From contig JAQGDQ010000615.1 in NCBI GenBank assembly GCA_030141605.1, forward strand, positions 1-64,000: 64,000 nt of DNA, given 5' to 3'. Both the position numbers and the translations under genes were made by a program. This document shows, one piece after another, positions 7,262 through 55,500 of this stretch (the first letter of the stretch is position 1; the number at the start of each line of letters is the position of its first letter). Under the pieces are notes generated by a model. It saw nothing but the letters and a program-made list of their open reading frames with translations. It had not been told where the DNA came from and did not search any database. The DNA is from Tubiluchus corallicola. Lineage: Eukaryota > Animalia > Priapulida.

Positions 7262-7461
7262 ACAAACGAAGAAGGAAAGAAACATACAAACAAACGAAGG
7301 AAGAAAGGAACATACAAACAAACGAAGGAAGAAAGGAACATACAAACAAACGAAGGAGGAAAGGAACATACAAACAAACGAAGGAAGAAAGAAACATACA
7401 AACAAACGAAGGAGGAAAGGAACATACAAACAAACGAAGGAAGAAAGGAACATACAAACAA
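7262..7461. repeat. 28-bp tandem repeat, ~7 copies, at the inner end of the left arm
   Basis: Unit ACAAACAAACGAAGGAAGAAAGGAACAT. Confidence 0.9.
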
Positions 7462-10085: not shown

Positions 10086-11842
10086 TGTCTGTGTATTTAC
10101 TCTTTCATTTGCTTGTGTATTCATTTGTTTTTTCATTTGTTTGTATGTTTATTTGTTCTTTGGTTTGCTTGTATGCTCACTTGTTTCGTTCGTTCAGCTG
10201 CACCCCGCTCACATTTTCGTTAAAGCAAAACCGGACCCAGTCTTAAACTGTAGGTCAAAACAATCCACTCTTTAAAATCATGAATGGAAACAAACTATTT
10301 TTTCAAAAATGCCTTACATGGGAGAAATATTATCACACAAACACAGTTTCACTAGTTCTTCATTGTTACATGCATTTCGCCAGTTGCTAGTTAGACGGGC
10401 ACTAGTGCCTGCGTTTCGGAAACGCATTGCACAAAATCAGGTTCTGTATCTCTCCTTCAGATGTGTCAGTTTGTGACGAACTACACACGTTCGACAGCTC
10501 GTGTGAGCACAGCGGTAAATTTATAATTTGAATTTTTATCTTAAAACTTGCCTAATTTTAGTACAACACACCGAATATCTTACAGTGGCACTGCACATTA
10601 ATTTTCGCTTTAGCAAACGCGTGCAACACTCTCGTGGAATAATTTTGCTGTTGGAAATTATGTTAGTTTGTGATGTCATTGATAGTTGGGCTCGCCCAAC
10701 GTTAATTAAGTTTTTAATCTATCATTTAATTATCAGAAACGTTTTTCCAGTGTTAATTATGTTAAAATGCATACTTTTTACCGTACTTGAAAATCGAGTA
10801 GCATATGAAAAATCATCAATTCACAAATGTTTTGCATATTAGCTATAAACATTTTTCCTTATATGGACTGAATGCACGTTAGCTGAGTCACATAGGCTGA
10901 ATGCTTTCCAAGAACAGCACTTTTTCACCTGTTATCTACTTCTAACTTTTCTCTTATATCCGTGGGAAAATTTATTTTTAATGGTGAAATAGTCGTCGCT
11001 TCTGGCCACTGGCCTCCAGTTGTATTAGTACACCTGTCTGTTTACAGGTTAATTAGCAATCAGGACCTGCAAGCTGACCAACAAGCCCACACAATTTAGT
11101 AAGACAGCTGTGCTGATTAATAAGCCTGATTCATTGTTCTTTTGCTTGACCTATGCAACTACTTACGTAACTAGATACCGTATAGGATTGCATACTAGTT
11201 AGTACAACGACAATAGCTTGTTTTTTGGCGTTAATTTTGCTAGCTACGTGTTTTCACTCTTAGCGAACTTTAAATAAATAAATCTATGCTATTAAGCGAG
11301 AGAAGTTTGTCTGTTTGCTCTTATGGATGCCAGCTGCATGATTTTAAGCTAATGAAATTTTACATGAATGATATAGTAAGGCCTCTGGGACGGACATGCG
11401 GAGGGAGGAGGGGGGGGGGTGTCTGTTTTCTATATTTACAATAATTTGGATTACCTTCGTGTGACAGATTTCGATGCTTAAGTGTTGAATTTGATTTTGT
11501 TTGGCTTCAGTATAATGAGCACTTTATGAACCGTGCTGTTTTCGTTTGTATAACCAGCTTTAGATGTTTTGTTGTTGGAAAGATTCGGCTTATAGACTTG
11601 CAAAGTTCCTAAACAGTTTCTAAGTGTTTTGAAGTACATAGAAAATTACAAGGCAACGTTATAACTAGACGCTATAAGAGTTGCTCTAGACAGTTATTTA
11701 CAAGCTAGGTATTTTTATGTTTATATAACACCTGTAATTAATGCGTACGTTAAATGCGAAAATGCCGTTTTTATTATACATGAGACATGAGAGAAACTTG
11801 CAAAGCTTGGGCTGTTAGCTGAAATTGTTTGATATAGGTTGT

Positions 11843-19345: not shown

Positions 19346-21595
19346 TTACAACATTTCGCTAATAACAACCGAGTACAGTGTAGATTCTGTACAATGTATG
19401 ACAGCATCGTGAATGCTCATGAACACGTGATCCTTCAACACTTTGTCGAAGAAGTCCATGCGATTGAGAGTGCGAATGAGATTGAAGTGACAGTTGGCAA
19501 AGTAGACATCGATACCAACGTCCCTGTACTCATGATAGATGCTAAGCAACATGTCCTTGCCGGCTAAATCTATGAGAGAAAGAAGGGAACAGTCAATGAT
19601 GAGAGCGGAGACCGTTGTAGGAGGGATGGAAGCCATAGACGCCATGGAGATCCTCCTGTCGACAATGCTCTCCGGATTGTTGTTGACGCCTGCCGGCTCC
19701 TCTTCCATTTCAAAGGCAATGTTTGCATTGGCGTGAGGAACGGAGATGACAGCAACATCTGGCTGACTCTTTCTATGTTCTGAATTCTTTTGTTTCTCTT
19801 CTTCCTTAGCCTGCTTCTTTGCTCGTTTCACAGCTTTTTCGTGATGTTCTTTTACAGCAACTGGATCAATACCTGTGAGACGAATGAGCTTCTTGTGAAA
19901 GAAACTGGCATTGATGTAGTTGATGTCCGACTCATAACGGAATATCTTGATGCCCGGAATTTCGTGAGCTTCTTTGAAGTGAGAGATGTCTTGGTATATG
20001 TCGGTGTCCGGAATCCCCCCAAAGACAACTCCGCGAGCAAACTGCGTCCTGACGATGACCGTGAGCAGAGAAAATACAATGCCAAGTATCAGTCCATAAT
20101 GTACTTCTAGAATGACCACACCCAAGTATGTGACAACCCAGACTGCAAAATCCACTTTGCTTTCTCGCCATAGTCGTGGAAGACACTTGTAGTTGGAAAA
20201 CGTCTCACGTAAGGCGACGACAATCACGGCTGCAAGAATTGCTTTTGGCAGCGTTTCCAGATACTGTCCAAAATACAAAAGTACAGAAAGAATGAACATA
20301 GAGCAAATGGCACTTGCCAGTTGAGTCTTACCGCCAAGAGATTCTTGCAGAAGACTTCGTGAAAAAGAAGCTGCCGGCGTAATGCCTTGGAAAACAGAGC
20401 AAACGATAGAATCAACTCCCAATGCCATGAATTCTTGATTGGAATCAATTTTATAGTGATGTTTCTTAGCCAGATGACTTGCCACTGATACGGTGAAGGC
20501 AAAGGCAGTAACAGCTATAATGAATCCATCCATGATCAGATCTTTGACCACAAAAAATGGTGGAAGTTCTGGTTTGTTGATGCCTACTGGTATGTGGTTG
20601 ACGATTTTAACGTCCCACCTCTCTTCAAAGTTCAGTCTCCACGATAGAGCAGTAACAATGACGACGATGATAAAGTCAATAGGAATTGGTATTCTTAGCT
20701 TAAATCTCTTGTTGATGAACACTTTGACTACCAGGAGAATGACAATGCCCGACGCAGCAATTATAAGTTCTGGTACCTTTGTATAACCCGTACATATCCC
20801 TTCAGCTATAGCGTACCATGTTCTCAGAAGTTTGAGCACTCCAGTAAAATGAGGTATCTTCAGACCAAAGATGTATTTGAACTGTGACGTCATGATGTAC
20901 AAGGCAGCTCCAGTAACAAACCCGTCGGTGAGTGATTCTGAGAGGTAGAGAGTGATGCATCCCAGCTTGCAAATGCCAAAGGCCAGCTGAAAGAAACCCG
21001 CTACTAGGGCGACACCCATAGTGACAAGAATCCTGTAATCTGCAGGAATCAGCAGATCACTCTCTATATGAAGATAGTCGCTTACGTTGCCTGGCAATTC
21101 TGTTTTAATGTGCGAAACTACATCAGGATCCTGGATGAACACCCTACTCCACTTGTGCACAGCAGTACCGGTCATCCAGGAGATGACTGCAGCTGGAGCG
21201 ACGCTGACGTGTCTGGACGTCCCCATCAAGAAATAAACGATCAGAGAAAAGAAACTCGAGTACAGTCCACAAATCGGCGGTAGATGGGCAATTTGCGCAT
21301 AACCCATACTCTGAGGAACCATCATGATGGCTACAGTTAAGCCTGTGATTATGTCTGCGGGAAGATCATTCCTCCACTTGTAATGTCTCATCCATTTAAA
21401 CACAGGAAACAATGACTGTAGACTCTTCCATGCATGCTCCTTGGTAACTTTCTTAGCCACAGAGCTTTTGACCTTTTCAGCTCCGTGAGCCAAACGCTGG
21501 CGTAAGGTTTTCGTTTCTTCATCTTTCTTCTCCAAGAACTGGCTGTCAAATTCCGGCCGCGTGTACACCGGCCTTTCCACTGAAAACTGCCGCAT
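19346..21595 (-). CDS. SLC26 (SulP) anion transporter, prestin/SLC26A5-A6-like, single coding exon, 749 aa
   Basis: Motifs DIITGLTVAIMMVPQSMGYA, GLYSSFF, GTSRHVS, NQEFMALG, SFSRSLLQESLGGKTQ; C-terminal STAS domain (IIDCS...IDLAG, FMSIHDAV). First ATG is at 21595; the ORF-track start at 21691 is GTG. Confidence 0.95.
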   Translation of the reverse strand: MRQFSVERPVYTRPEFDSQFLEKKDEETKTLRQRLAHGAEKVKSSVAKKVTKEHAWKSLQSLFPVFKWMRHYKWRNDLPADIITGLTVAIMMVPQSMGYAQIAHLPPICGLYSSFFSLIVYFLMGTSRHVSVAPAAVISWMTGTAVHKWSRVFIQDPDVVSHIKTELPGNVSDYLHIESDLLIPADYRILVTMGVALVAGFFQLAFGICKLGCITLYLSESLTDGFVTGAALYIMTSQFKYIFGLKIPHFTGVLKLLRTWYAIAEGICTGYTKVPELIIAASGIVILLVVKVFINKRFKLRIPIPIDFIIVVIVTALSWRLNFEERWDVKIVNHIPVGINKPELPPFFVVKDLIMDGFIIAVTAFAFTVSVASHLAKKHHYKIDSNQEFMALGVDSIVCSVFQGITPAASFSRSLLQESLGGKTQLASAICSMFILSVLLYFGQYLETLPKAILAAVIVVALRETFSNYKCLPRLWRESKVDFAVWVVTYLGVVILEVHYGLILGIVFSLLTVIVRTQFARGVVFGGIPDTDIYQDISHFKEAHEIPGIKIFRYESDINYINASFFHKKLIRLTGIDPVAVKEHHEKAVKRAKKQAKEEEKQKNSEHRKSQPDVAVISVPHANANIAFEMEEEPAGVNNNPESIVDRRISMASMASIPPTTVSALIIDCSLLSLIDLAGKDMLLSIYHEYRDVGIDVYFANCHFNLIRTLNRMDFFDKVLKDHVFMSIHDAVIHCTESTLYSVVISEML

Positions 21596-21669
21596 GACTA
21601 TCTCCCCTCCGATGCACCAAATCGTCTCTATGCTTATTGGTTGGAAGAATACTGCTTTAGAAAATGAAA

Positions 21670-21702
21670 TAAGTGAATTCCAGCCACACACGTGCTTATA
21701 AG
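21670..21702 (-). promoter_or_regulatory. Candidate TATA box plus initiator for the first SLC26 gene
   Basis: Minus-strand TTATAAG (21701-21695), then TCACTT (Inr-like) ~26 nt downstream, ~80 nt before the ATG. Confidence 0.35.
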
Positions 21703-22189
21703 AGAGTCGTTCCGCCAGACCAGTTTCCGTATTGGCAGCCCACGTCCTTGAGTTGATGTGCTTTAGACGTCATCAGCACCCGCAGGCCATATGAACCTTT
21801 AACTCAATTTGTAATAAACAATCAGCTACCTGAGTAAGACAGGTGTATTAATTGCGCTGAAGATAAACTTACTGTCACCTGGGCTGCGACCTTTTTAATT
21901 TCTGTGGCCTCTTGCATAGAAAGGGACAGAGTTTTTTTTTGTATTCTAGACCCGAGAAGTGTAGTCATTAGGGGAGCTGTCCAGGGTCGCGGGGGGCAAG
22001 CGGATGTTTTTTTCGCAGAACCAGAGTGTGTCCACTTCTTGGCTCGATGACGTCTGCACGTGAGAAAGCGTAAACATGTTTTTACTGCTGCAGTTTTGAA
22101 CTCATTTCTGTTTCTGGTTTTCGCTACATTTACGCACTATGGTTAAACATTAGCCTTCTCGTTTTTTTTACATCAGAAACTGAATTTAG

Positions 22190-29006: not shown

Positions 29007-31127
29007 TCATACAGTCCTGCTAATCACGGCATCATGAATGGTGACGTAGAATACACGACGGGGGACCTTGTCAAAAACTTGCATCTCTTCCAGTGATTTA
29101 ATTAAATTGACTTGACAATTAGCAAAGCAAACATCCACGCCAGTGTCCTTGTATTCTTCATAAACTTGTGTTAAGCATTCACCACTAGTTAAGTCTATTT
29201 GGGAGAAGTTGCTACAGTCGATAATTATTGTACGCAAACGTTGTTTTTCAGATTCACCGATAGATGACGCTGGCGTTGTCGAATTGTTTTCATCGAAAGC
29301 TTCATTGACGTGACCTTTACTGGCATTTGCACGAATGGCGTGTTGTTTCCTTTTCTCCATTTCTGATTGGAGAACAGAATTTGACGTCTCATTTGTCACT
29401 GTTGCACAAATTTCGTCGTACTTGGTAGATTTTGCCAGTTTGCTCTTGAAGAATTCTGTGTTCAGATAGTTAAGATTGCTTTCAAAACTGACGATTATCG
29501 CCCCCGGAATTTCTTGCACTTCACTGTAGTCTGCCATGTTGCGATAGATGTCGGTTTCGGGGAATCGCCCCACTATCACACTGCTGGTGAACTGGGTGCG
29601 AACAATGATGCACAGAAGTGAGAAAGCGACACCTACAATCAATCCAACCAAGACGTCAAAACAAACGACGGCGACATAAGCAACAATCCAGATTAGAAAA
29701 TCCGTTTTGCTTTGCTTCCAGAGACGTACGACTTTCGTATAGTTGGTCAGCGTGCTACGCAATGCGACGACAATGATGGCGGCCAACACGGAATTTGGAA
29801 GCGCCTCCAAGTATTGTCCAAGAAACAAAAGTACAATGAGTATGCACAGTGAACTTAGTGCACTTGCTAGTTGTGTTTTACCACCCAGCGACTCCTGTAA
29901 AAGACTCCGTGAATAGGAAGCGGATGGAGAGAATCCAGAAAATAATGAGCAGACAACTGTTCCCGTACCAAGAGCAAGTAATTCCTGATTGGGATCGATT
30001 TTCTGTTTATGCTTCTTTGCCAGATGTTTGGCAATGGAGATCATGAAAGCGTAAGCAGTAAGACTTGCTATTAGACTGTCTACAAGAAGGACTCTCAGGA
30101 TTCCGACAGAAGGTAGTGTAACATCTGGAAATCCTTTGGGAATGTATTTCAGAATTTTCACTCCATATGTTTCTTCAAAGTTAAAACCCCAGGACAAAAG
30201 TGTAGCAGAAACTACCAAGACGAAGTCAATAGGTAGTGGTATTCTGCACTTCTTTGATAATCGTTTACTGATGAAGATCTTGAACACCAGTAGTATGATG
30301 ATACTACACAAAGAAATGACGAGCTCTGGTATTTTCGTGTCTGCAATGTTCTTAGCATACCACGTCCACAGTCTGAAAAGCTTAAAAGCGCCTCTAATGT
30401 TTGGCGGTTTCATTCCCGACAAGTACTTGAACTGGGAAGAGACAATGTAGAGAACAGATCCAGTTACAAAACCATCGGTGACAGATTCGGAAAGGTACAG
30501 CGTGATGAAGCCAAGACGAAGGAATCCCATCAACAGTTGTATGAGTCCCGCTGTGAACGCCATGCTGGTAGCGACGACGATGCGAATCTCTGCTGGTGGT
30601 TCGCCATCAACATCTAATGACTCATTGACGGCACCATAAAGGCTGGAGTTCGTTTCTGGATGATGATAAATTTCACGACTCTGGGTGTAGACGGCTACTC
30701 CTATCAACCAAGAAATCAGAGCGGCCGGAGCAACGCTGATGTGTCGCGAAGTTCCCATCAAGAAGTAGATGATTAGTGAAAAGAAACTGGTGTATAAACC
30801 GTGTATTGGCGGCAAATTTGCCAACTGGGAGTAGCCCATGGCTTGAGGAACTAACATAATTGCGATGGTAATTCCAGTGATGACATCTGCTGCTATGCAT
30901 TCTTTGATGTTATATTTCTTTAACCACAGGACACAAGGAAGCAGGAACTGAAAACCGTTTAGCAGCACCTGCTTGCATGATGATTTAGAGCACCCTTCCA
31001 ACTTCTTCTTTAGTAGAGCTAAAACGAATGGAGATAGTTCTTTGTTTTGTTCATTGCGTTTTGTATTGAAAGTTTTATCGAGATCTTCCACATTGAAAAC
31101 TGCTCTGTCGATCACGTATCTTTCCAT
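29007..31127 (-). CDS. SLC26 (SulP) anion transporter paralog, single coding exon, 706 aa
   Basis: Motifs DVITGITIAIMLVPQAMGYS, GTSRHIS, NQELLALG, SYSRSLLQESLGGKTQ; STAS domain IIDCSNFSQID...TIHDAV. Clearly paralogous to 19346-21595. Confidence 0.95.
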   Translation of the reverse strand: MERYVIDRAVFNVEDLDKTFNTKRNEQNKELSPFVLALLKKKLEGCSKSSCKQVLLNGFQFLLPCVLWLKKYNIKECIAADVITGITIAIMLVPQAMGYSQLANLPPIHGLYTSFFSLIIYFLMGTSRHISVAPAALISWLIGVAVYTQSREIYHHPETNSSLYGAVNESLDVDGEPPAEIRIVVATSMAFTAGLIQLLMGFLRLGFITLYLSESVTDGFVTGSVLYIVSSQFKYLSGMKPPNIRGAFKLFRLWTWYAKNIADTKIPELVISLCSIIILLVFKIFISKRLSKKCRIPLPIDFVLVVSATLLSWGFNFEETYGVKILKYIPKGFPDVTLPSVGILRVLLVDSLIASLTAYAFMISIAKHLAKKHKQKIDPNQELLALGTGTVVCSLFSGFSPSASYSRSLLQESLGGKTQLASALSSLCILIVLLFLGQYLEALPNSVLAAIIVVALRSTLTNYTKVVRLWKQSKTDFLIWIVAYVAVVCFDVLVGLIVGVAFSLLCIIVRTQFTSSVIVGRFPETDIYRNMADYSEVQEIPGAIIVSFESNLNYLNTEFFKSKLAKSTKYDEICATVTNETSNSVLQSEMEKRKQHAIRANASKGHVNEAFDENNSTTPASSIGESEKQRLRTIIIDCSNFSQIDLTSGECLTQVYEEYKDTGVDVCFANCQVNLIKSLEEMQVFDKVPRRVFYVTIHDAVISRTV

Positions 31128-31862
31128 GTCGGCACTTTCTAAAGCTCAAACACGATGGTATTCCTTAAGCGATGACAAAACAAGTGCTTTTAAAATAATC
31201 TAGCGCATGTCGTCAAGGGTGCTTTCGATAAACAAGCTTTCGCAAACCATTTTTTTGTTCACGTTTCATGATGGAGGGCAAAAGAACCACGAGGAATTAG
31301 CGGAGTTCAGGAAGAGAGAGAGTAAGAGAACAAGAGGAGTGTAAAATATGCTGGCAGCACAGAACGACAGAAAGATGAAAATACAAACGAATAAAACCAC
31401 CAAGTCAATTTCGTAGACAATTTATTAGAACTGTATCACAAAAAGCTACTAGTTATTATCGCATTTTAAACAACAGACCCCCATCTGGATTGTCTTGGTT
31501 TAAGCTATGTACACAAGTCAATTGTACACGGTCTAGCAAGTCGTGAACAATAGGATATTGTTCATTGCATAATAGCTGGAAATATGAGCAGCAAATATGA
31601 TCTCTTATGACAACTTTAGATTATAACCTGTTAAATATTGCCAAGCACTAATACATCCTGTTTAAGCACTTTTTCCCAAGAAGAATTATTAAGAATTCTG
31701 TCAGGGCAGCAATCACTTTGCAGGATAGATAAGTGTGTTATTAATTACATTTGGAGACTTATAACAATAATTTCATATATTGAACAATAATAAACAGCTA
31801 AAATTCGCAATGGAGGCAGTGACTGCGATGTAGCCAAGATGGCCGCTAGTTACGTTTTAAAG

Positions 31863-32815: not shown

Positions 32816-35800
32816 GAAGGTAAGTGGAAAAATGTCTAATCAAGTATCACCCAAACTTGGCTGCATGTCTTGACAAATTTTTTACAGTTTCAGTTTTGGT
32901 GTTTGTCCAATTCAAACTGCTTCCCTGACCACGATAGAGGCAACATTTAGGGTTCTAGGGTCTAACAAGAGAAGCAGCTTTTAGTTCACTAGAAAGACAT
33001 TTTTACTTTTTACTATTAGCGGTTGTGGCAGACTGGGTGTCGTTGTGCCATTATTTTCATCACTTGGTATCCAAACATTTTGGAAGCAAAACTAGTGGAC
33101 AAAGTAAGCCAATGTGTAAAAGTAGAATTCTAAATTTCGGGGAGCTGAGGAGTGGATTATTCGTAAAAATCACAGAGATTTCGTAACCACTAAGTCCTAT
33201 AGCTTGACTTGTAACGGATCAATTGTAAAATTTCCTTTGTAAAGGTTTAATAATCATGGAAAATTTAAATGCCATTGAGGAATTCAGTATCTTCTAAAAC
33301 AACAAATGTATGAGTTTGTTATTTCAAATTTGATACAATTAAAGTTTACCTTAAGATAGTGGCAACCAAAAATATTTTGGTTATATTTCAATTATTTATC
33401 TGGAATGCCCAGTATAGGGGCACGGTGCTGTCCTTCATTAAAGGACAAGAAAAGGGGCACCTGAGATATGTTTCAGAAAAACCGCCTTAAAAAATTAGAT
33501 TACTTTACAGCATCTTATGCATATATCGTACTCGCGTTAAAATGAATTTATGTTGGTTTTCATTTTAAATCAACACTGTACAGACTGCGCCACTGACGTC
33601 ACCTACGCAAACGTAAATCAGGGGAAGAAAAGGAAATGTAAAATTACTTCCCTTAAAACTTTCCATGCAAATCTATATTACTTAGCATTTCGCTACCTGC
33701 TGGAAAGACGTATCTAAATAGAAATAACAATTTAGAATGTTTGTGCCAATTGGTAAAACGTCGCTGGCTCACCTTACAAGGTGCACCACTCCCTAACCAA
33801 AAACGTATTTTTTCTTATTAACAAGATATAGAAATTTAAAATTTTACTTAGTAGCATGTGTGTTATGAATGCTCTGATTATTTTTCAAACTTCACGGAAT
33901 GTTATCTAACTTGTTTCAAACGACCTACCATTAAAATGGCTGCGCCTACGGGTCATGCGGGAGTTTAAATTTACTAAGTTTAAAGTTTTATACAGCGTTA
34001 CTGCCGATGCAAGCCCGGCATGCAAAAAGGCAGTATGTAAGTGGCATAAGATTTCAAGACGAATTTTTAAGCTTTACGTAAGTGGAGGGTTTTCTTGCGC
34101 TTTTAAAGCGAACGAGACCTACGGATTTTTCTACAGCTGCTTCTAGGACGTTGTAAGAAAGTACTTAAGGATTTAAGATTAAAAAACATTTTATTTAATT
34201 TTTATTTTGATTCTTTTGATCCTAAATAAATTAATTTTTTTATGTGTGAATGATTTAGAGTCACAGAAGGACTTCATCGTGGTTGAGCATGCGCAGAGAG
34301 TCGAACAATTGCAACAAGACATAGAAACGTTGAACGAACAAGTTGCAGCCCTGCAGAAAAAAGCTAAGCTGGTAGCTAAAAATTATTTCTGTGCAGTTTT
34401 TTTTTTGTTTTACAAAATAATAATTAAATTTACTCAAAAAAAAACAGGCAAGGAACTGAGAAACTAGTTTGAGGTGTACTTGGTTAAGTGGTCCAGAAGC
34501 AAAGTCAGTTTTCATAAGTGGTTTAGCACATGTGCCAGTTTGAACAAGAGATTGCTTAACTCACGCGGACAAGAGGAAGGAAGACGTTAATTAAATCCAC
34601 CCAATTAATAGTAGATTAATCTACCTTCAGCTAAGTCGGCTAAGTAATGGTGTATATGGTGTGTATTAATCCAGCTTTTGGTGCAATTTTATTAACGATT
34701 TCAGTCGCAAATTATTTTTTTAATAAGAAATTTTTTTTTGATTTAGTACTTTTGTTCAGTATGTCCATCTTGTTTACACATAATAATTATTTTTCCTACC
34801 TGTGCCCGCGTGCTAAATATAGTCTGTATCCCACGGGATACATTGGGATTCAATGGAAGCATAAAATGTGCTTCATTTTGCAACTGCTGATAATTTTTAA
34901 AGTATTTAAGACATTTAGTTATGCATGCTATACTAATCTGTACAAAGTCGTCTCTAAAGTACTGTACCTTGCGCAGTTTTTTATGCTATGTAGATTTTCT
35001 AGTTTGCCATTTTATCACTATTTTTAGTCTATTGTTAATGGCTTAAATCAAAATAACTATTAACAGATCAAATAACTGTCAGTTTTAAAATTTTATTAAT
35101 TTTAAAGGCAGAAAATATTCTCGTATCCCACGGGATACAACGGGTATGAAAGGGTTAAAGGAAAACCGGATGATTGTATAAACATTAGTTCAGAATAAAA
35201 GAACGTTCTAAAATATTGAAAACTACGATAGCTTTTTTTAAATCAAAGCTTAGATTAATTCATAATTACCTCGGATACTCAATTTTCGTTAAACTTTCAA
35301 AGCTACGCGCGGCTCGGTGAATCTACTAAGATTGGCAGCGGCGCCTTTTTGTCACACATGCGTGGCCGGCAAATAGAAGGCGGTGCCGTGATAACCATGA
35401 TCATGAAGTGCTGTGTTAGTTTCTGACGTCATATGATGTAAAGCCCGTTTTCGCAACATCACGCATTTAAATTGTAACACTTACGCAAACGTGCTTGATG
35501 CGCAAGGGAAGATGCCTACCAATAGCACAAACTGTGGTTAGTTTCTAACGAAAGCAATAGCTGTGTTCGGTTGCCGTTAATTAACTTTCTAAGCTAATTA
35601 TTCAAATATTTGGAACAATTACTAACTTTTAGAGGCAGGAAAATGTATAATTATGCAGTAAATTAAAATGAAATTGAGTCTAAGCAATCGTCCGGTCTTC
35701 CTTTAAACAAGCTGTTATTATAATAAGGGTAATGTAGATCAAAATATTCAATTTGTGAAAGTTCTAAAATATAATGCTCAAATTGGTTCACAAATGTGTG

Positions 35801-42518: not shown

Positions 42519-43063
42519 TGGACTGATGTTTTTATATTATGCTGGTTGTTTTTTTCATGCTTTGTGATTTTGTTATAGACAATATCTCTGAAGAAACATT
42601 AAATGAGACTCAACACTTGCAGGAGAACTTGTTAGTAAACGAATTTTATCAGCAGCAAACGACTGACCTAGAATCTAAAACCCCCCAAAATACACTTCTA
42701 AGTTGTGCAACAAGTTTTTCCATATATTTTTGCTTCTGTTGCAAGTGCTTCACATTTTTTGGTGTTTTCAGATATTAAACTCAGACAACATTGAAAAGAA
42801 GGGAGCAAGGCATCTTAAACATGAAATACTGTCATCTCCATGAACGTGGTCACAAGGTCTTTTCACAAAAGATTTAATCTTCAACTCTTTAACCTCCAAA
42901 CTGTTATCACATACTTTCGAAGCTAGAAATGTTCTCTGAAATGAGATGCATCAAAATTGCAACTACAACAGAAAAATTAAGGGCCTACCGTAACAATTTT
43001 GCACTGGACCGAGTTATCCATTTACATGCAGACAACATGAAAATTCCAATTATATAAAACGGA

Positions 43064-43945
43064 ATGGATCTTACTTTGTACTTGTACAACATTGCACTTG
43101 CTATAATTGGTATTACAGCTATAGCAGGGAATATGCTAGTTGTCCTGTCTATGATAAAGTGCAGAGAACTGCGCCATAATCGTAATTACTTGTTAACATC
43201 TCTTGCAGTAAATGATCTAGTTTATGGGGTATACATGGTGATTTTGTCATTCTACTGCACACTGGGAACAAATTGTGCTAATATGTACACAATAACAACA
43301 GACTATTACTTCGGCACATGCAGTCTGTACAACTTGTTTGCAGTAGCAATAGAGCGTTATGTGGCTGTTATGAGACCACTACGGTACGCACAGCTAGTCA
43401 CAAGAACGAGAATATTCTGGACAATATTAGCTGTGTGGTTGTCGAGTTTGTTGGTCCCTTTTGCAGTAGTATTATCACTCAAAATGGAAGGAGAGGTATT
43501 CCCTCTACGAATACCGCTTACATTTTTTATAATTTCGATTATATTTCACTATATGCCAGTCGTAGTAACACTGATTGTGTACATCAGGATATGGCGAGAA
43601 GCGATCAGGCAATTCAACAGAATAAGGACCGAATATCAGATGATGCAGATTTATGTGGTACATCAGCAACAATCTCAAGCAAGGGATGGAGGAGCACGAG
43701 AGCCACAAAGAAAAGCAACTACGACTATTGGGATAATTCTGCTTGGCTTCGTTATTTCCTGGACATTTTACATATCACTACTCATGAGCGATGTGCTGTG
43801 TGACTGTGTCACCAATTTACCAAAGCTAATTAGCTACCTAGTACTTTATGGAAATTGTGCCATTAACCCTGCAGTATATGCCTGGAAATGTTCAGACTTT
43901 CAGAAGGCTTTTAAATTTGTTCTTACTTGCTGCACTAATCGGTAA
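43064..43945 (+). CDS. Class A (rhodopsin-like) orphan GPCR, single coding exon, 293 aa
   Basis: TM1 GN, TM2 SLAVND, TM3 AIERY, TM4 W, TM6 FVISW, TM7 NCAINPAVY, helix 8 with CC. Almost no N-terminal ectodomain. Confidence 0.93.
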   Translation: MDLTLYLYNIALAIIGITAIAGNMLVVLSMIKCRELRHNRNYLLTSLAVNDLVYGVYMVILSFYCTLGTNCANMYTITTDYYFGTCSLYNLFAVAIERYVAVMRPLRYAQLVTRTRIFWTILAVWLSSLLVPFAVVLSLKMEGEVFPLRIPLTFFIISIIFHYMPVVVTLIVYIRIWREAIRQFNRIRTEYQMMQIYVVHQQQSQARDGGAREPQRKATTTIGIILLGFVISWTFYISLLMSDVLCDCVTNLPKLISYLVLYGNCAINPAVYAWKCSDFQKAFKFVLTCCTNR

Positions 43946-44960: not shown

Positions 44961-47369
44961 CTAAGTTAAGATTTTACTCATTCTTTGTAGGCTTTTCATA
45001 TTAACCTGCACGACAGAAAAACATTTGGCAACTTCAGCACATATATAAAATGATCTGGTGGCTAAGTCACCAAAAAGAAAAGCTCATGTATATACAGTAA
45101 TTAAATGTACTAATTAGTAATAAAATAATTAAAAATGCTCGATGACTTTTTCTAGATAAAGTACCTAACTCAAACTACATTAATTAGGTGTTCACTTGTT
45201 TTTAGTTTTAGCTTTGCAGCAATGGCATGCAGTAAGTAAATACCATGTTCTTACTCACATTGTTGTTGTACACGTTTCATAAAAAGTGCAAACACTTTGT
45301 AGTAGGTGATCGTATCACAATCAGACATAACAGGGATATACACTGGGGAACTACCAACACAGCAAGGATGGAGCGGTTTCTCCACTTACCAGTCAGGTAC
45401 CCTGGGGAAAGAATATGTTGTTACGGAATCTTCATAAGTAATTGCACTCATGCCATATTTGTACTGATTCTTCCAGGAGCAAACTAGCATAATTTCAAAA
45501 ATTAAAAATAATGAGAAGCTATAAGGGTATCACCTAATCATAATGAGAGTGTGAAGGCAGACAGAAATAATAATTATAATACTTTATAATATTCTTTATT
45601 ATTATGATTAAAAATTATAGTGCCCAATTTTTTTTCCGTTTTACACTATCCTGGATGCCATGTGCCCAAAACCAAGCAGAAAAGTTAGATGATAGTAAAA
45701 ACATTTGTACAAGGATATGTGTGATGTGCGGACGTATACATGTTATATTCATGTTTACATATAATATTCATATGTAAATGCACATGTGCACAATGCACAA
45801 ACACACACAAATCATGCATTTATCTAGAGAAATGGTACAACAACAAAATAGGTGAGGTAATTTTCTAAGATTAGCAACTTCCTTTACTATCAATTCCTTA
45901 TGTTTACAGCTTTGCTACATTTTTGAACAAAGGCATTAATTTTCCCATGAAAACCACAAAAGAAGCTTATACTAGGCAGCAAGCCAGCCAAGCAGAAGAA
46001 AGGCTAACACAAACAAGAAAATATTCACATGGCAGTATCAGGCTGATGCACTTATTGATGTAATGCTCACATCAAAAGCAAAACTTTATGATTAAACAGG
46101 ACAAAACGTATTTACTGATGCCATTAGATTAAATCTCTGGTGCAAAAGAGATGACAGCATTTATGCCTATAATAACAATGAATGTTTTTGCTAATACCAT
46201 GATTACATAAAAGTTATGATGTTGTAGTTAAATCTTTTCAAAAAAGGGTTAAATTCTCAAGGTAATGGAAAGCACAGACACGACAATGTATCAAAATTTG
46301 CTTGTTAAGTCTAGCAGAGTAAGTTGTGCATGCAGGTTTGTACAAAAGATAAAATGGACATTACTCAATATTTATACTATGTTGCACTTGCAATAATTGG
46401 TACAGTGACTATTGCAGGCAATGCATTAGTTGTGTTGGCCATGGTAAAATACAGGGAGTTGCGTCATAACCGTCAGTAGTGTCTAATGTTACATTTCTGG
46501 TCCACTTAGGGACCCCCACCTGCTGCCCGGGGGGGGGGGGAACCGTGACCCCTGACCGCGACCCTTGACCCGGTTCTATTGTTTTTGATAGTTAAGTGAC
46601 CAATTAGGCGATTAGAGCAACGATTTAAGGATTAGGAGTGACGGTTAGGACTCCTGCAACTTTTCCGGGGGGTGTTTTACGAATTAGGGGCACCAGCCTG
46701 TAGGAAACACCTTGTGAGAACGCCCCTGCCACGGTAAATGCACTCATCCGATCAGGCGAGGAGGCGCGCACGCGTCTACCCTAGATAATTGCTTAATCCG
46801 GTAATTGACTCGAGCACCTAGCTAGATAACGACTTAATGAGGGCTTAATCCGGTAATTGACTTACACGTTTACATGTCTACACGACACGACACCTAGCTA
46901 GATAATTGGATAATTGATGTATCTATTTGAGAGTGTGTATGCAGATTTAAAAGCGTGTTCAAATGTACAGCAACCACTATACGGCAGCCGGGTAGATAAG
47001 TCCAGCTAGATAATTGGATAATTGATGTGTCTATTTGAAAGTGTGTACGTGTATTTAAAAGCGTGTTCGAATGTACAGCAACCACTACAGATAAGTGGAT
47101 AATTGAATGCCCGCTGTCTTCTACTTTGTATGCATTTCAAAGCAGCGAGCGAGTATTTTTAGGTGAGGATATATATATATATATATATATATAATCCCAA
47201 ACTCGTAAGTTGCATTAGCCGTATTTTATTGAAAGATTTCTTTTTTGACAATAGGAGATTTAAAATTTTACTTTTATCTAGACTAGATGTACAAAGAGAA
47301 AAAAACTGAGGCGCTTTACTATTAGACTAAAATTGTCAGAGACTGAAGTGTATTTACTTTTTAAAATAT

Positions 47370-47995
47370 TCATTTATCTTTATCTTTATCTCGGTGGGAT
47401 GCTTTCCTCGGGTTGTCAAAAACGATGTTGGATGGGGGACCCGTGCTCGTTGATGATGCTGTTGTTGTTGTTACTGTTGATGTTGTTGTTGTTAGCGGTG
47501 GTGGCATATTGATAGCAGATGCAAACCGAACGTTGACATTGTGGTTCTGTAATCTCGGCGGCGGCGGTGGTGGTGGTGCCGTTTTAGGTACAGCTGCTGC
47601 TGTAGTCATCATTCTAGCAGTGACGATCGGAAGGTGATGCAATCTCGGTGGTGGCAACACTGCTGCTGCTGCTGCTGATGATGCTGTCACAGTCATCTTG
47701 GTGTTAGGCACGACCTGGTCCTCGACTTTGCAATCATCAACATCCTCGTTGTCAAAACCGTCATCGTTATGATCGTCATTGTCATCTCCATCATTATCCT
47801 CTTCAATCATCACGTCGACGTCGATTGATGGAGATCAACGTCATCATCATCATCGTCATCACCGAAACCCTCGTCGCGATTAACATCGCCTATGCTAGCA
47901 GCAGCAGCATTAGCTCCAGCAGCAGCGCCAGCGGCAGCGCTACAGCTGGCACCAACCTCGCCCGCAAACTCGAAACGACGTCTGCAAGAGCGCAT
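47370..47995 (-). pseudogene. Low-complexity (Ala/Asp/Pro/Thr-rich) reading frame in the element, apparently frameshifted
   Basis: ORFs 47810..47995 and 47370..47813 overlap in different frames. GC-rich, codon-like composition; AATAAA (-) at ~47225-47230. Confidence 0.4.
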
Positions 47996-48023
47996 CGTCT
48001 GATGAGAACCGGCTGCTAATTGA

Positions 48024-48935
48024 TCATTGATCTTGATCGAATCTTAAAGCGCCACACTTTTTCTTAGTGCATTTGCGGGTACACTGGGATTTAATATAGT
48101 TTCTGACGCGCTCGCCCATGAGTAGTCTAAATTGCAATGATTCGAGGTATGTGTGGAAACCGTCACATGCAAATCCACTGGGAGCATTAAATTCGTATAT
48201 GAATACAATTCCATTCCAGATGGCTACTTTCATCGATTGACTAATGTCGAAAAATGTACACCTGCCACTTTACTCGAGCTCGTCAAGGGTGCGGTGATGT
48301 AGCATGTTGGATAAGATGGCGCTACCTATCATGCGCATCTGTCCTGCACCAGGCGAAATCCACATTCTGTGCTCTTCTTGTTTACCAATGATGTAATTGA
48401 TACGGTCTTTTTTCAAAAATAGTTGTTCATACTCGTATGGCGTGAGCCTTACTTGCGGTAACGATGCTAAAGTTGAGTGCCCGATCACCTGTCTTTTGCC
48501 AATTGAAATTTTGGTGCGCAAAAGACCTCCTACTGAAACATAATTGCCCCTACCCAGATGAAACGTCAATCCCGAATCAAAAGGTGCCCGTTCTGCCACC
48601 GCCGCTGCTAGCATGGCCAACGGACATTCTATTTCATTTATCGTTGTTACCTAGTGATGCGGTAAAAAATTATCCTGCATTTTTCTAATGACAAAACGAA
48701 TTTTGGGATCTATATTTGAATTAAATATTTCTAACGTTGTTTGAAGAAATTTCTCTCTTTTTTGCAATAAAATGCGAGTATTTGTGCCCAGGCAATCGCA
48801 ATTTGCGTGAACCGTAAACGTATTCGATAATTGCCAATGATAGGGCCCCAAAAATCTCTCATCAATCGTGTGTGCATCCATGCCCCCAAACAGAGATGCC
48901 ATTATATTTTTTCCAAATCCATTAAGCTTATCCAT
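48024..48935 (-). pseudogene. Decayed protein with 2-3 PC4-like (ssDNA-binding) repeats
   Basis: ORFs 48651..48935, 48270..48620 and 48024..48233 share one frame, separated by single TAG and TAA stops. FHLGRGNYVSVG...KISIGKR...VRLTPYEYEQL and FFDISQSMKVAIWNGIVFI...YLESLQFRLL resemble the PC4 pattern. Confidence 0.5.
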
Positions 48936-51509
48936 TCTATGAGAGTGAGCATAAATTGTACAGCCATCACAATGGCACCGACTAACAACAACACATCGTC
49001 ATCACGACTCTGAGTAATGGAGCCACCCCTTGCCAGGGGAATCTGCAAGTTAAAAGGGAGGCATTGATCAGTAAATGCTTTTATATTCACTGAAAAATAT
49101 ATACGTTACAAAAAGAAAGAAAGAAAGAAAGATGTATTTAGTTAAACTCACCTGATGATCGTCAAACAAAGAGCTTCGACAGGTGGTCACTTTCAAACTT
49201 TTGATGTTATATATCACCTCGTTTTCGATGGTGTCTTGATTAGACAAAACAGTAGCATTATTCGAAGTCATGACGATCTCTTTGAATGGTTTACTGTCTG
49301 ACACTGTTTCCTGTTGTCAGTGTTGCTGTGGTCAGTGATGTCGGTGTTGATGATGATGATGACGCTCCCAAAGAGCTCAATGCTAGCGATGTCGATGATG
49401 ATGATGACGGTGATACCGCTTTTGTAGGCTGCCTCGTTGATGATGACAGCGAACCTGACACTGAAGAGTGCTTTCTGTAAAAGGAAATTTATTTTATACA
49501 ATGACCAAAAGAGGGCGACAATAGCATCGTTAGCAATGAGAAAAAACACTGTGTAAAGTTTTCTTTATTATATATATATACCTGTTATAGTCGACGATTT
49601 TTTAAAAGATGGCGTCCAGATGCATTCGACCTATTCTTTTTGTAATCAATGATACATTTATAGTATAGAGAATAAGAGACATTATTATTATTATTTAAGG
49701 TAGAGTACAGTCTTACGCTGTAAAGAGTTTGGTGGTCTTCATAATGAATAAAATTTCTATTTTCTACTAAGTACCTTTCTAATTTTCTGTCAAGCTCAAC
49801 AAAATCATAATCAGCTTTCTTTGTATTAATACTAAGAGATCATACGAGCATTTACACGAACAATAGTAAAGTTTTACATTTAAAAATTATACTCGCTCGC
49901 TATTGAGATTTCCACGATGGGGTAATCATGAAAATTGATACTTACAGCTATTACTCGGATTGGAGATTATCGGACGTTCTCTCACAATCAATTATCCCAA
50001 TCCGAGATTAACCATCCACAATGGGCTTTTACGCTATGCTATACCATAGCTACTCTAATAATATGTATCTCCTCTGGTAATGCTAACAAAAATTGTCGAA
50101 GAATATGAATTAATACGGTGAATATTATAATTTGCTGTTAATTCATCGCTAAAAGTGTTTACTTACTTTGATTAGCTGTTTAAAAGAAATTATCGAAGAA
50201 TACAACAAATATTATTATTATTATTATTAAGGGTGCACTTTCACACAATCAGTTGAGGATTGCATTTCACGAATTAGCAAAGCAACTAGCTTTCCAATAA
50301 TGCGAATATTAAATTATGGCTCTCACTTACCGTCTTTGAAAGACAATGAGAAAGATGCCGGCGAGCTGGCTTTCTTGACAATGTTCTAAATTATCAAAGA
50401 AAATGACACTCTAAAATCGTTCTATTGTTCTATCCTGTTTTAAAGCATTAAAATTTTTATACACAATTCTTCAACGTCCTCCTTTTCTTGTCTAGAAATT
50501 GATGTTCTAAAATCAATCGCATTTTAAAGCATTAAAATTTCATACTCACCCAGAGGAGATGTTTGCCAAGTCGTAGTGCACGTTACAACACGTCAGTCTT
50601 GACTGTTATTCTTAGACAAAATCCCCACTTAGCTAAGCGACTCGGAAGAGTGGTGTTCAAATTTTGCATTGACGAATTAAAAGGCTGCCATTCATTTACA
50701 ATACCGTGGGGAAAACTTTTGGACTTAATCTGCTCATAGTCACATGACTTGCAAGAGTGGCTTTCTATGGTGTATTATCGAAACAAAAGACTGTCCTTCA
50801 GTTTCAATTCTGTGGGAAAACTTTTCGGCGGGAAAAATTTCTGCATAATAACCATTAATATATTTCTTTGTAAAAAAACACTACGTTATTGGGACGTAAT
50901 AACGAGATTAGGTGAGACCATTTGGGCGAGAAAAAAATCCCTTCTAATTGTAATTTAAGTAGGGGTCGTTTGCTATTTTTTCAAATAAAAGAGTTGTTTC
51001 CGCGAATGAAAAAGACCATACGTGCTCATTTGCAGTACCAGCACTGTGGACGCTCTCAAATTTCGAGTAAGTGTAACTTTCTTATTCTTTACAGATACGA
51101 ATCGAAAACTGTACACATAAAATTTCTTTAGTGTGTTTTAGTTTTATAATGACACTTTATTGCTTTTTCAATAGCCTTCATTATTTTCTTACAGAATTTG
51201 ACTTTCTTTAAAGTCGGAGAAATTAGTCGTGAAGTTTGGAGAAATTACATCATAATTTGTGTAAGTGAAATTTTCTTTTACTGACGGGAATTGAAGTTTG
51301 TACACTTTTATGTTGAGACTCGTCAATTACGTTATCGCTTATCCCTTAAAAGTAAATATAATGCTTTGAAATGCTTAAGCTATTATCTCTTATCTACGAA
51401 AAAATTAGGTCGATGCTCTGACGAAAAAAGACACTTTCACTTAATGCATAAGCTATAACCACGTCGTTTAAATGATCGATATTCATTATTTTTTACAGAA
51501 ATTGACCAA

Positions 51510-51968
51510 ATGCGATTGTTATGCATATTTGGAGAATTTACAGATGCTCGTATTTTCCAGGCTCGGCTGTATCTTAGAAGAGCCTACCTCTATCGTGCAC
51601 GCACCCTCGTCATGGAGCCGGACCCGGAACGCATTTTTAAAGCAAAAGTGGTAGTGAAAAAATTAGACATTGCCACCTGCGATATATGTGGCCGACTTTT
51701 TCAAAGCATGACGGCGATGCTACGCCACATTACAAACGTTCATTGTGCTCACGACAAAGAGCGTCTTTGTCACGTGTGTGGGGATATGTTCATGACCGAA
51801 TGTGGCTTACGGGCTCATCTCATGTGAAAACACCAATGAGAACAGCAGCAGCAGCAACAAAATGGTAACGAAGATAATACAAAGCCGTTTTTGTGTGAAC
51901 AATGCGGTGACCTCTTTCGTACTTTAGTGGGTTTAAAGAGGCACGCCACATTTAAACATCGCGAGTGA
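51510..51968 (+). pseudogene. Three-finger C2H2 zinc-finger gene with two in-frame TGA stops
   Basis: CDICGRLFQSMTAMLRHITNVH, CHVCGDMFMTECGLRAHLM*KH, CEQCGDLFRTLVGLKRHATFKH. Preceded by a TTTTTTACAG acceptor at ~51498. Confidence 0.8.
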
Positions 51969-53051
51969 TGGGAGTTCATGCAAAAAACTGGTTTTGGATT
52001 CACGGATGCTAATGGCTTTATTGGGTGTAATGGACGTATCCATATCTAGTCTAGATAAAGGTAAAATTTTAAAAATTGTATTGTAACTTAAAAATGGGAA
52101 AATATGGATAAAGGAACATTCTATCTATTTAATGTCGAAAGTATGCATGTAAATGAATCTCCACTTGTCAAAAAGAAATCTTTCAGTATGATAGGGCTAA
52201 TGCAACTCGTATTCACCGATGCTAATTGACTGCATACACACTCTCAAATAGTCACATCAATTATCCAATTAACTAGCCGGGTGTCGTATCCTGTAGTGTA
52301 GTGTATGTAAACGTGCAAGTCAATTATCAGATTAAGCCCTCATTATCTAGCTACGTACTGGAGTCAATTACCGGATTAGGCAATTATCTAGGGTAGACTC
52401 GTGCGCGCCTTCTCGCCTGATCGGATGAGTGCATTTACCACGGCGGGGGTGTTCTTTGTAGGTGTTCCCTAATTCGTAAAACACCCCCCGGAAAAGTTGC
52501 AGGAGTCCTAACCGTCACTCCTAATCCTTAAATCTTTGCTCTAATCGCCTAATTGGTCACTTAACTATCAAAAACAATAGAACCGGGTCAGAGGTCGCGG
52601 TCAGGGGTCACGGTCCCCAGCAGAAGGGGGCGTGGCCTAACGGTCAGTAATGTAACATTAGACACTACTACTGTCACTATCTGTTAACATCTCTTGCGAT
52701 AAGTGATCTACTATATGGAATAGTCATGTTGATTTGGTCATTTGGCTGCACACTAGGAAATATTGGTAGTTGTGTCAATATGTACATGTTAACAGCAGAC
52801 TATTATTTTGCTACTTGCACTCTGTACAACATGCGTGCAATAGCACTAGAACGCTATGTGGCTGTTATGAGACCGCTGCAGTATGCACAGCTAGTCACTA
52901 GAACAAGAACATATTGGACAATATTAGCTGTGTGGTTGTTGAGTTTGTCAGTTCAGCTGACAAATATTTCTCATAATGTCGGTTATATTTCACGTTACAC
53001 CAGTTATAATATCACTGATTGTGTACCTTAGAATATGGCAAGAAGCAATCA

Positions 53052-55500
53052 GACAAAAAGGCAGTATGTAAGTGGCATAAAATTTCAAGACGAATTTGTA
53101 TGTTTTATGTTTCTTGTGCTTTAAAGCGAACTAGACCTACGGATTTTTTCTTCAGCTGCTTCTACGCCGTTGTAAGAAAGTACTTAAATTTTAAATATTT
53201 AATTTTTATTTTTATTCTTCTGATCCTAAATAAATAAGCTTAAGTTTTTTATTTTTGGACAAAATTATGGAAAAGTCGTAGGGGTGGGAATGGGTAAACG
53301 CCAATTCCGGAAACCATTAGGCTTGCAAAAAATCTGAATAGGCCTACTACACCCTGAGATCGTTACTGGCTGGTCTCATGAATCAAAAAGTAAACAATCA
53401 GTGATGATAAACAAAAAAAGGCATTCTTGCAACCAAGGCAAATTATGAATGATGACACTTCGTGCAACAATAACGATGTTAGATGCTTAAATCAATTCAT
53501 GTCAAACACCTACAATATGGGGTCTGTGTGGAATATGTACAAATCTATACTGAATTTTTTTTTTGAAGTTTTTATTATTCGGGAATATGTTCATCCAGAG
53601 AAATATGCCTATGATGTCCAGTATGCTCCAGTCTAGTATATATTCATCTAGCTCATATTTTTCTTAAATTTGTAGAAAGTAGACGTTTAGTGCAGTCTTG
53701 GTTGTTATTTAGTGAATTTTTCAGGAGTTTTTTGACGGGCTTAAATCTCTTTTTCTCTGCGTATCCATGTGGGTGAGCGTTCCTTTTTTCGTCTTGTCTT
53801 TTTTGGAAATGATGTCTGATATACCGACGAATGAACAGTTTAAGGTAAGAGTTAACAAATGTATGTAACAAATGTGTGTAACAAATGTATGTAACAAATG
53901 TATGTAAAAGTGTAAACGTTTGATTAAGAAAATGTTCGCAATTTTAGTCAAGTAATAGAAATAATAACGTTCAATAATTTTAATTCTATTTCGTCAATGT
54001 GACATTGACTTTCATCACTGTGTGGTATGATATGAGCTTGCACATGTTTTATGCTTATTACCCGTGAGACTGTACCGTTATTTCCCAAAAATTAGCCACT
54101 CTACGAATATAGCCTTGTGGCGCCATCTTTGAGCCGTGAATTGAGTTATGTCGATTAACTTGTTGCCTTCACACTTTTAAATTCAGACAATGTTATTTTT
54201 AGCTTTACCAAAGCGAGTACAAGGACGAAAAGTGGCCAGAAAATTTGTTTCATAATGAAGAAGAAGAAAACGAAGGTACAGTAGCTTATATGCTTATTAT
54301 AGCATCTACAATCAATTTTCATAACAAAGGCAGTCGTTATTCGTGCTTATGAATCACAAGCTTAAAACAATGAGCTCTAGTGATGTTCACTTGTTCTATT
54401 CGTTTATGTGTTCAATGGTTTATTCACTGATTTGTTTGGGATAATCGCTATTGTCTTCCATTAATTTGTAAATAAATTTGGTTTGCTGAGTTGTATATTC
54501 ATTCTAAAGCTCATGTCAAAAGAATCCCGCATGACCTTTGTCTTTTAGTAATCTTAGTTTTACCTGTCCGTCATTCGTTTTAGATGATGAAAATCTTGCC
54601 ACAGAAATCGCAGAAAACAGCGAGGAAGACGACACCAGCACCCTCGTGTGGCCGCCATCGTCATTAATGGACGTGTTTTGAAATGAAGTTTCTATGCCTG
54701 AAATAATAGGCCTAGCTAAAAGAAAGCGCGTATTTTTGTAAAAGCGGTATAAAGCAACCTCTTGTAAGAAAAATGCCTATGTTTCAAGATGTCACACAAC
54801 TGATATAAAAATGCTTAACCGGTACTGTTTGTTTATTATGCATTTAGAGGTAAACACTTGTATGCAAAAAATTAATTAAGAAAATATCTTTACTGGTTTT
54901 GCTTTTCCATTTAGAATAAAATTAAGTTTGTACTGTAGTCCGGTGCGGCATGATACATTAACCTAATGTTTTTTTTTGTATAATAAAAATGAGCCATTGC
55001 TTATATAATATGCTCACTGATTATGTGTGTTGTTGTTTTTTTGTACATTTTAGAATTTATTTATTGCTAGACATCTCTTTCCCGTTGCTATGTTAAATTT
55101 GTTTTCGTTTTTATTCAAATGACTAAAAAGAATTCCGTGTTTTACTGCAACTACTGAACTACGATGTTCTTTCCAATGCATACATGACTTTATATTACGT
55201 ACTAAACGCTTCCAGTAGTTTCTATCTGATATGAAATGCATCAGTCTTAAATTATCGTACATTAATATTTTCTAACTGTCACTTTCTACTAATGTCTAAT
55301 GTAATCTTGTAGTAAAACTTGTCAGCTTGTGTAGTTATAGTCTATTCTTACTGTAAATGTTTTTGTAAATAGTGTATAAAGTCTGTTGTGGTGAGGATCC
55401 TAAATCATGTTGTTCAAACTGTCTGATCCAATCCTAAATAAATTATGTTTAAACTAACTACGATAGCAGCAGTCATTGCTGTTATGCTGTTACTACAGAA
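53052..55500 (+). repeat. Segmental duplicate of ~34024-34230 and ~36976-38581
   Basis: 53052-53235 matches 34024-34230; 53614-55163 and 55472-55500 match 36976-38581. It includes copies of the last three exons of the putative membrane-protein gene. Confidence 0.9.
55166..55456 (+). mobile_element. Probable 5'-truncated LINE 3' end inserted into the duplicate
   Basis: Absent from the paralogous site at ~38550. Flanked by AACTACGAT direct repeats; RTKRFQ-like remnant; AATAAA near the 3' end. Confidence 0.5.

Follow-up and report, generated by a model that had tools for sequence, protein, structure and literature searches.

A core-less insertion with Polinton/Maverick ends and two broken gene arms in a receptor pseudogene of the priapulid Tubiluchus corallicola

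An insertion with the ends of a Polinton/Maverick element, yet without the core genes of this group, is present in the genome of the priapulid Tubiluchus corallicola, within a stretch of 64,000 nucleotides (assembly GCA_030141605.1, contig JAQGDQ010000615.1, positions 1 to 64,000 of the forward strand) that is called the window here and to which all coordinates refer. The insertion spans 46475-52669, starts with AGTAGT, finishes with ACTACT and interrupts a gene for a rhodopsin-type G protein-coupled receptor (GPCR). Since Polinton-type ends and a 6-bp target site duplication occur together without core genes, the element is non-autonomous; in our assessment it is probably a derivative of a Polinton lineage from which the core was lost while the two accessory arms remained. 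The element is real and non-autonomous Polintons are already known, whereas a core-less Polinton that retains spliced accessory genes alone was not found described in the main texts of the open-access literature; the supplements of PMC8097293 and of bioRxiv preprints, as well as Repbase, may hold core-less elements. PMC5803895, PMC6035795, PMC5753468, PMC5718144 and PMC6431247 offered background of a general kind.

The outermost 21 bp of the element form a perfect inverted repeat, and the 20-bp end motif, with up to three mismatches allowed, is found twice in the window, where 0.01 occurrences would be expected, a count that none of 100 shuffles reached. The continuous terminal inverted repeat (TIR) measures 470 bp at the left end and 440 bp at the right end, with 393 identities, 41 mismatches and 42 gap positions (82.6% when gaps are counted), so that the two copies disagree at 41 of 434 aligned bases (9%). 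Inward of this, just two patches of 53 and 41 bp (87-88%) are shared, so that likeness extends no farther than 814 and 626 bp into the element. Both the termini and the 21-bp repeat agree with an earlier note on this DNA, made from the sequence alone; the imperfect TIR of ~650-800 bp that it described holds as the outer limit of patchy likeness, not as a continuous repeat. As no transposase or integrase is present, the family is called from the ends, which leaves room for a non-autonomous member of some other TIR superfamily that produces 6-bp duplications; to our knowledge, however, the other superfamilies with such duplications have different end motifs. Mavericks, as described in passages of PMC8097293, end in (AGT)2...(ACT)2 or (AG)3...(CT)3, have TIRs of 46-1447 bp and are flanked by 6-bp duplications. 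The terminal motif, the long TIRs and the 6-bp duplication are all present here, and with (AGT)2...(ACT)2 ends and TIRs of 440-470 bp that match this published signature, we regard membership in another superfamily as very improbable. The octamer GATAATTG occurs six times in the left (46784-47105) and three times in the right (52258-52388) TIR region, of 16 occurrences in the whole window; these copies are candidates for sites bound by a protein of replication or integration. An E2F-like motif, found once in the element and ten times in the window, was dropped. The observed/expected CpG ratio is 1.05 in the element and 0.78 in the remainder of the window.

An empty allele confirms the duplication. 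Copies were judged from public contigs, among which X1 and X2 are runs of one sample and X4 is a run from another study; X1, with 0.54 of the window's sampled words, is a possible but not a certain source of the window. In contigs of both X1 and X2, position 46471 is joined directly to 52673, the shorter side of the joint measuring 30 and 60 bases, and the 6201 bases skipped correspond exactly to the 6195 of the element plus one hexamer, which establishes the 6-bp duplication ACCGTC/ACTGTC that had been proposed, its copies agreeing at five of six bases. Read from the position of the joint, the empty site would bear the left hexamer, so that in our reading the right copy would have mutated by one transition at a CpG. 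In X1 this joint has a depth of 160.5, about half the value of the flanking bins (316-431) and similar to that of contigs specific to the element (142-205). These depths are consistent with the presence of a filled allele and an empty one, although none of the listed contigs spans an end of the element. One X1 contig of the right arm departs from the window at 16 of 899 bases. The host is highly heterozygous at 46020-46471: of two X3 contigs over 46020-46218, one matches the window fully (0 differences in 199 bases) and the other departs from it at 15 bases, and the empty-site contig differs at 10 of 282. The polymorphism of the insertion may therefore date back a long time.

The host gene matches the Pfam family 7tm_1, and its reading frame rejoins once the element and one hexamer are removed. 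The clean insertion into a GPCR frame described earlier is accordingly correct locally, but farther downstream the gene carries a frame shift near 52960, a stop at 53029-53031 and a repeat at 53054-53097. Next to it lies an intact single-exon frame of 295 codons for a rhodopsin-type GPCR (43058-43945, plus strand), 67-68% identical to the interrupted copy, which can be aligned with this paralog to residue 185 only. The insertion thus occupies a GPCR broken in other ways too, and the two genes stand in tandem, the first intact and the second a pseudogene. The repeat at 53054-53097 is a short piece of a very abundant one: hundreds of contigs end there, with loose ends on both sides, and a 57-bp match with 91% identity is found at 34023-34079.

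The absence of core genes, also claimed in the earlier note, is supported from several sides. Autonomous Polintons measure 13-25 kb and encode pPolB, an integrase, an ATPase, a protease and capsid proteins, whereas the 6195 bp of this element hold no stop-free frame longer than 154 codons. A Pfam scan of 17 element fragments and two read-through frames found no family of pPolB, integrase, ATPase, protease or capsid, zinc fingers being the only domains above the cut-off in the fragments; a PHROGs scan of five element proteins found no core Polinton family. Rfam gave no matches. Polinton ends without core genes are what characterizes a non-autonomous Polinton. The earlier note had gone further and proposed a satellite or transpoviron-like element, or a viral segment, with regulatory genes of its own; the Polinton ends, the duplication and the lack of core genes are borne out, but the further step to an element keeping its own regulatory genes is not supported, as the genes carry stops. 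Transpovirons have a superfamily 1 helicase gene, a C2H2 zinc-finger gene and a linear extrachromosomal form tied to a giant virus. The element is similar to them in size, TIRs, C2H2 zinc-finger gene and helper dependence, and unlike them in being inserted, with a 6-bp duplication, into the chromosome of an animal, in its predicted introns and in the lack of a superfamily 1 helicase, for which there is no Pfam match and no element frame long enough. Transpovirons are named in part of PMC4028283. If a Polinton-like virus were multipartite, with its segments separately packaged and integrated, one such segment could likewise have complete ends and non-core genes only. The broken genes, the rare right arm (see below) and the asymmetric TIRs all argue against such a segment, however, and nothing related was found in IMG/VR viral contigs with the left gene, the C2H2 exon or three TIR patterns (0 matches for the latter), nor was a partner segment seen; we consider this origin extremely improbable.

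What the element does contain is two gene arms with opposite orientation. The left arm is defined by a minus-strand frame at 48027-49043 with 4 stops in 339 codons, compared to 21.6 in shuffles (none of 2000 as low) and 17-23 in the other five frames, which identifies it as a real coding frame of a broken gene. The gene reported toward the left TIR therefore exists, interrupted by stops and frame changes. A second, low-complexity gene reported in the same direction corresponds to low-complexity pieces at 47370-48043 (minus strand), which are probably the tail of the upstream gene with frame changes, suggesting one gene rather than two, and the region previously described as central and AT-rich includes further minus-strand exon-like pieces (50331-50385 and 50550-50807). 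All five frames assessed for stop density were picked after inspection, and for three of them (47370-48043, 49152-49474 and 50550-50807) the density is not significant.

The earlier description of the left gene as a PC4-like repeat gene could not be confirmed. Its protein matches no Pfam family up to E 1 or 10, and its internal repeats do not rise above those of shuffles (33-358 of 500 shuffles). Two single-sequence models of low confidence (predicted local distance difference test, pLDDT, 46.8 and 37.3) display a strands-then-helix pattern twice, a unit that we take to resemble PC4. Relatives with the PC4 fold lie within the noise (MRP1/MRP2 at E 0.86; PURA repeat III at Z 2.2, root-mean-square deviation 5.2 and 49 aligned residues), and fold searches with the two models gave nothing significant; neither PC4 nor SET entries are among the matches listed, which excludes neither. 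In the ESM Atlas, SET-bearing clusters were retrieved at 0.91-0.94 (top 0.93-0.94), and the ten best family-bearing matches share the SET family or clan; they have only 141-151 of 256 features in common with the query, under the 170 typical of true members. Pfam detects no SET domain in the protein, no SET entry is among the best 50 fold matches of the pLDDT-37 model, and a second ESM Atlas query gave no usable match. PC4-like and SET-like are thus equally weak leads. No homologs of the left gene were detected at E ≤ 0.01 among 900 and 2640 candidates, or in IMG/VR viral contigs; comparison with solved structures gave 0 and 1 (E 1.7) matches, and two phage matches have E values of 4-7. The sole match in 1.84 billion representatives, a tandem-repeat translation, was rejected as chance; one of 146 metagenome candidates, a 24-residue match beside stop codons with no likeness at the DNA level, was rejected as well. 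With no detected relative among these 1.84 billion representatives, the left gene would mark an uncharacterised family of Polinton cargo.

The right arm encodes a C2H2 zinc-finger protein. Its frame at 51498-51965 (plus strand), read with X at the stops, matches Pfam zf-C2H2_4 in three stretches (E 5e-11; 42.8 bits compared to a cut-off of 27) and contains two stops, a number as low as that in 12 of 2000 shuffles. The zinc-finger gene noted earlier toward the right TIR is thus present with three fingers, as a broken gene, and of the DNA-binding cargo attributed to the element only the zinc fingers are substantiated. A homolog search with the C2H2 exon returned one candidate and none that scored, which is odd for a zinc finger and indicates a weak search. 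A contig found in X1 and X2 (depth 177.7 and 10) links 51556 to 51876 and represents another rare variant of the zinc-finger gene, one whose middle part differs.

Splice motifs follow the strand of each arm. The left arm has 5 GTRAGT donors and 10 acceptors on the minus strand, compared to 0 and 4 on the opposite one (20 and 98 of 500 shuffles reach these values), and the right arm has 2 donors and 6 acceptors on the plus strand, compared to 0 and 2 (75 and 18 of 500 shuffles). These motifs lend modest support to predicted spliced genes that diverge from ~50.85-51.0 kb, six candidate introns having been judged by their ends only, and 50820-51000 is likely a back-to-back promoter region.

The two arms differ sharply in abundance, as far as contig depth, which is not copy number, can tell. 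Over 47.2-49.7 kb, single X1 contigs reach depths of 4,900-10,700 (for example 9,812 at 47512 and 4,939 at 49232), 30-60 times deeper than the contigs unique to the window's variant; the window's own left-arm variant (47462-47762, 0 differences) has a depth of 205. The summed depth in X1 drops from 13,108 (49672-49782) to 287 (49783-49893), is 142 at 50560-50781 and varies between 12 and 1,420 across the 22 bins of 49783-52224; it then rises to 4,483-7,188 on the inner TIR (52336-52557) and is 473 on the outer 110 bp. For the TIR patch at 52509, a summed depth of 22,740 was obtained. The X4 contigs show the same trend, with depths of 129-469 on left-arm pieces (~93-95% alike) and 3-14 on pieces of the centre and right arm; one element-matching contig in X5 and none in X6 have no bearing either way. 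An abundant related family, 90-95% like the left gene region, thus has the left gene, the predicted introns and parts of the TIRs in common with the element, whereas it does not share the centre, the zinc-finger arm or the outer ends. In this sense the element is a mosaic, in which a left arm (~47.2-49.7 kb) and inner repeat patches that match the abundant family are combined with rare outer ends, centre and right arm. A single-copy interior collinear with one parent, the case that the earlier note had named as speaking against its own proposal, does not describe this mosaic, with its abundant left arm and rare remainder.

The sharp depth edges near 47.2 kb and 49733 could be taken to mean that an abundant left-gene element of ~2.5 kb (~47.2-49.7 kb) was inserted in, or recombined with, a smaller and rare Polinton-ended element. 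Such a nested composite is made quite improbable by four observations: the abundant family also matches TIR patches (52329-52360 and around 52509), the inner patches at 47208-47288 are mirrored at the right end, the edge at 49733 is bridged by rare relatives, and none of the 25 longest inverted pairs (of 89) bracket 47.2-49.7 kb. The rare relatives include a joint at 49676-49750 in both samples, an X4 contig that runs from 50883 into the zinc-finger gene and the variant skipping 51556-51876. A deep X4 contig departs at 49733, matches the 27 bp of the donor-site stretch 50524-50550 and continues into other sequence, this 27-bp side being weak. The interval 50560-50781 is represented by the window's variant alone in X1 and is uncovered in X4, so that no independent contig ties the two arms together.

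A more substantial alternative is a satellite family, that is, elements of fixed layout without a core, copied and integrated in trans by Polintons and equipped with their own chromatin- or DNA-binding genes; the abundant family would be of this kind, and the copy described here a decayed and rare variant of it. It would account for the clean ends and the duplication with its exact empty site, for the left gene, predicted introns and TIR patches held in common with the abundant family (as at 52509), for the collinear pieces in the second study (X4) and for a divergent two-arm layout without any core remnant, and the abundant family could itself be core-less with intact genes. In this copy, however, the genes are broken (4 and 2 stops, plus frame changes) where a satellite would be expected to have intact cargo, depth is close to single-copy over the centre, the right arm and the outer ends, and loss of the core yields the same layout. 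As a weak negative, no second insertion site of the element ends was found among the loose ends listed (14 of 119 and 24 of 835) or the joints listed, nor did these reveal another 6-kb copy at a target site of its own. We therefore regard a satellite origin as unlikely, if worth retaining. In its fullest form, to which we give an equally low probability, the abundant family would be a core-less Polinton satellite with tens of copies per genome; its spliced genes would encode a divergent protein of SET-like or PC4-like type and, in some variants, a zinc-finger regulator, its arms would be swapped by recombination, and helper Polintons would spread it. If the abundant family is indeed core-less with intact genes, it would constitute a cargo-only, gene-carrying satellite class of animal Polintons and would bear on how Polintons move cargo and on whether helpers act in trans. 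The earlier step to a satellite or viral segment keeping its own regulatory genes is not supported, given the stops, the 41 of 434 TIR mismatches, the near-single-copy centre and right arm and the lack, among the listed contigs, of a second copy with this layout and a separate target site.

In the scenario that we favour, a Polinton lineage would have lost its central enzyme and capsid genes, so that only two ends and the side (accessory) genes remained; these genes are now broken. A Polinton integrase likely inserted the element and left the 6-bp duplication; it may have been supplied in trans by another element or by the same copy before core loss, and loss of the core either before insertion (with movement in trans) or after it would yield the clean duplication and the empty site. 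Recombination between related elements or lineages, suggested by the uneven depth and the 9% TIR mismatch, would have built the mosaic. Mosaicism has been reported to be common in this group of viruses, though for core modules (10.64898/2026.10.13.758929). Core loss would explain the layout because full-length Mavericks have intron-bearing cargo by the TIR and accessory regions on both sides. Intact vertebrate Mavericks, of 12.7-24.6 kb, have two core modules flanked in most cases by two accessory regions, although such intact elements are few, 96% of the vertebrate loci being degraded (PMC8097293); in nematode Mavericks, a 2-5-kb region by the left TIR has intron-bearing genes of low conservation (parts of 10.1101/2022.07.12.499685). 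The left arm here is ~3.7 kb long, with splice motifs on the coding strand. Several points weigh against core loss. No parent element was seen among the contigs, so that the loss itself is something we infer; no core-gene remnant in the element marks a deletion point; much of the layout recurs in other copies, since the rare relatives cover both the 49676-49750 joint and the passage from 50883 into the zinc-finger gene; and the abundant family, which has a related minus-strand exon layout in the deep X4 contig with the weak 27-bp side, may itself be core-less.

Compared to autonomous vertebrate Polintons/Mavericks, as far as portions of PMC8097293 describe them, the element is alike in its end motif, its 6-bp duplication, the length of its TIRs (a few hundred bp), the accessory regions that both ends carry and the decay that is frequent in this group; it is unlike them in its size (6.2 kb vs 12.7-24.6 kb), in having none of the eight core open reading frames (ORFs) and in its predicted introns, the core ORFs there being intronless. 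With nematode Maverick cargo, as covered in parts of 10.1101/2022.07.12.499685, it shares a TIR-adjacent region of 2-5 kb, intron-bearing genes (predicted here) and low conservation, whereas the nematode elements are largely complete and carry proteases or kinases and this one consists of cargo-like arms with no detected homologs. As a core-less derivative, the element would show which Polinton parts survive without enzymes, namely the ends and accessory arms, and it provides a polymorphic insertion together with its empty allele. Non-autonomous Polinton derivatives are reportedly represented in Kapitonov and Jurka 2006 and by the Repbase 'N' families. Insect polintons without polB have been described as well (part of 10.1101/2025.02.07.637071). 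Both groups, to the extent that these partial accounts describe them, resemble the element in having Polinton ends without the full core, and differ in that here the whole core is gone, two gene arms diverge and abundant and rare lineages form a mosaic. The features of the element and its target are compiled in Table 1.

Table 1. Coordinates of the insertion, its predicted gene pieces and the interrupted host gene in the window
Feature	Position	Strand	Remarks
5' part of interrupted host rhodopsin-type GPCR	46348-46474	+	67% to paralog at 43058-43945
Left copy of 6-bp target site duplication	46469-46474	.	ACCGTC
Whole element	46475-52669	.	6195 bp, (AGT)2...(ACT)2 ends
Left TIR	46475-46944	+	470 bp, perfect over the first 21 bp; outermost ~110 bp rare, inner portion in common with abundant family (split read from depth profile of mirror copy at right end)
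108-bp-period duplication of TIR sub-repeat	46896-47087	+	two 84-bp copies, 92% alike; left end only
Inner TIR-like patches	47208-47288	+	mirrored at 52156-52207 and 52044-52084, 87-88%
Low-complexity coding pieces (acidic, then Pro/Thr/Ala-rich)	47370-48043	-	two frames, 47810-48043 and 47370-47834; nothing above Pfam cut-off
Broken coding frame, 339 codons, globular	48027-49043	-	stops 49004-48999 (two), 48653-48651, 48272-48270; PC4-like or SET-like leads
Predicted Ser/Thr-rich exon with frame change	49152-49474	-	flanked by predicted GT-AG introns 49043-49151 and 49475-49581; motifs only
Predicted small exon	50331-50385	-	found in rare relatives too; 3 X1 contigs and one X4 contig here
Predicted exon ending at GTGAGT donor	50550-50807	-	50560-50781 covered by window's variant alone; candidate zone for joining of two arms
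Divergence point of predicted genes	50820-51000	.	putative; strand switch of splice motifs
C2H2 zinc-finger gene	51007-51968	+	two predicted small exons (~51007-51066, 51195-51260); last exon from 51499, three fingers; stops 51825-51827, 51837-51839
Right TIR	52230-52669	-	440 bp
Right copy of 6-bp target site duplication	52670-52675	.	ACTGTC; single CpG transition relative to left copy and empty site
3' part of interrupted GPCR	52676-53056	+	Pfam 7tm_1, E 3.4e-15; frame-shifted near 52960, truncated

Elsewhere in the window, two long single-frame ORFs of 807 and 712 codons lie on the minus strand at 19346-21769 and 29007-31145; they look like SLC26/prestin-type anion transporters. Long microsatellite blocks at 7071-10275 are seemingly duplicated ~2.8 kb apart, and inverted pieces recur at 1.7-2.7 and 14.7-15.8 kb.

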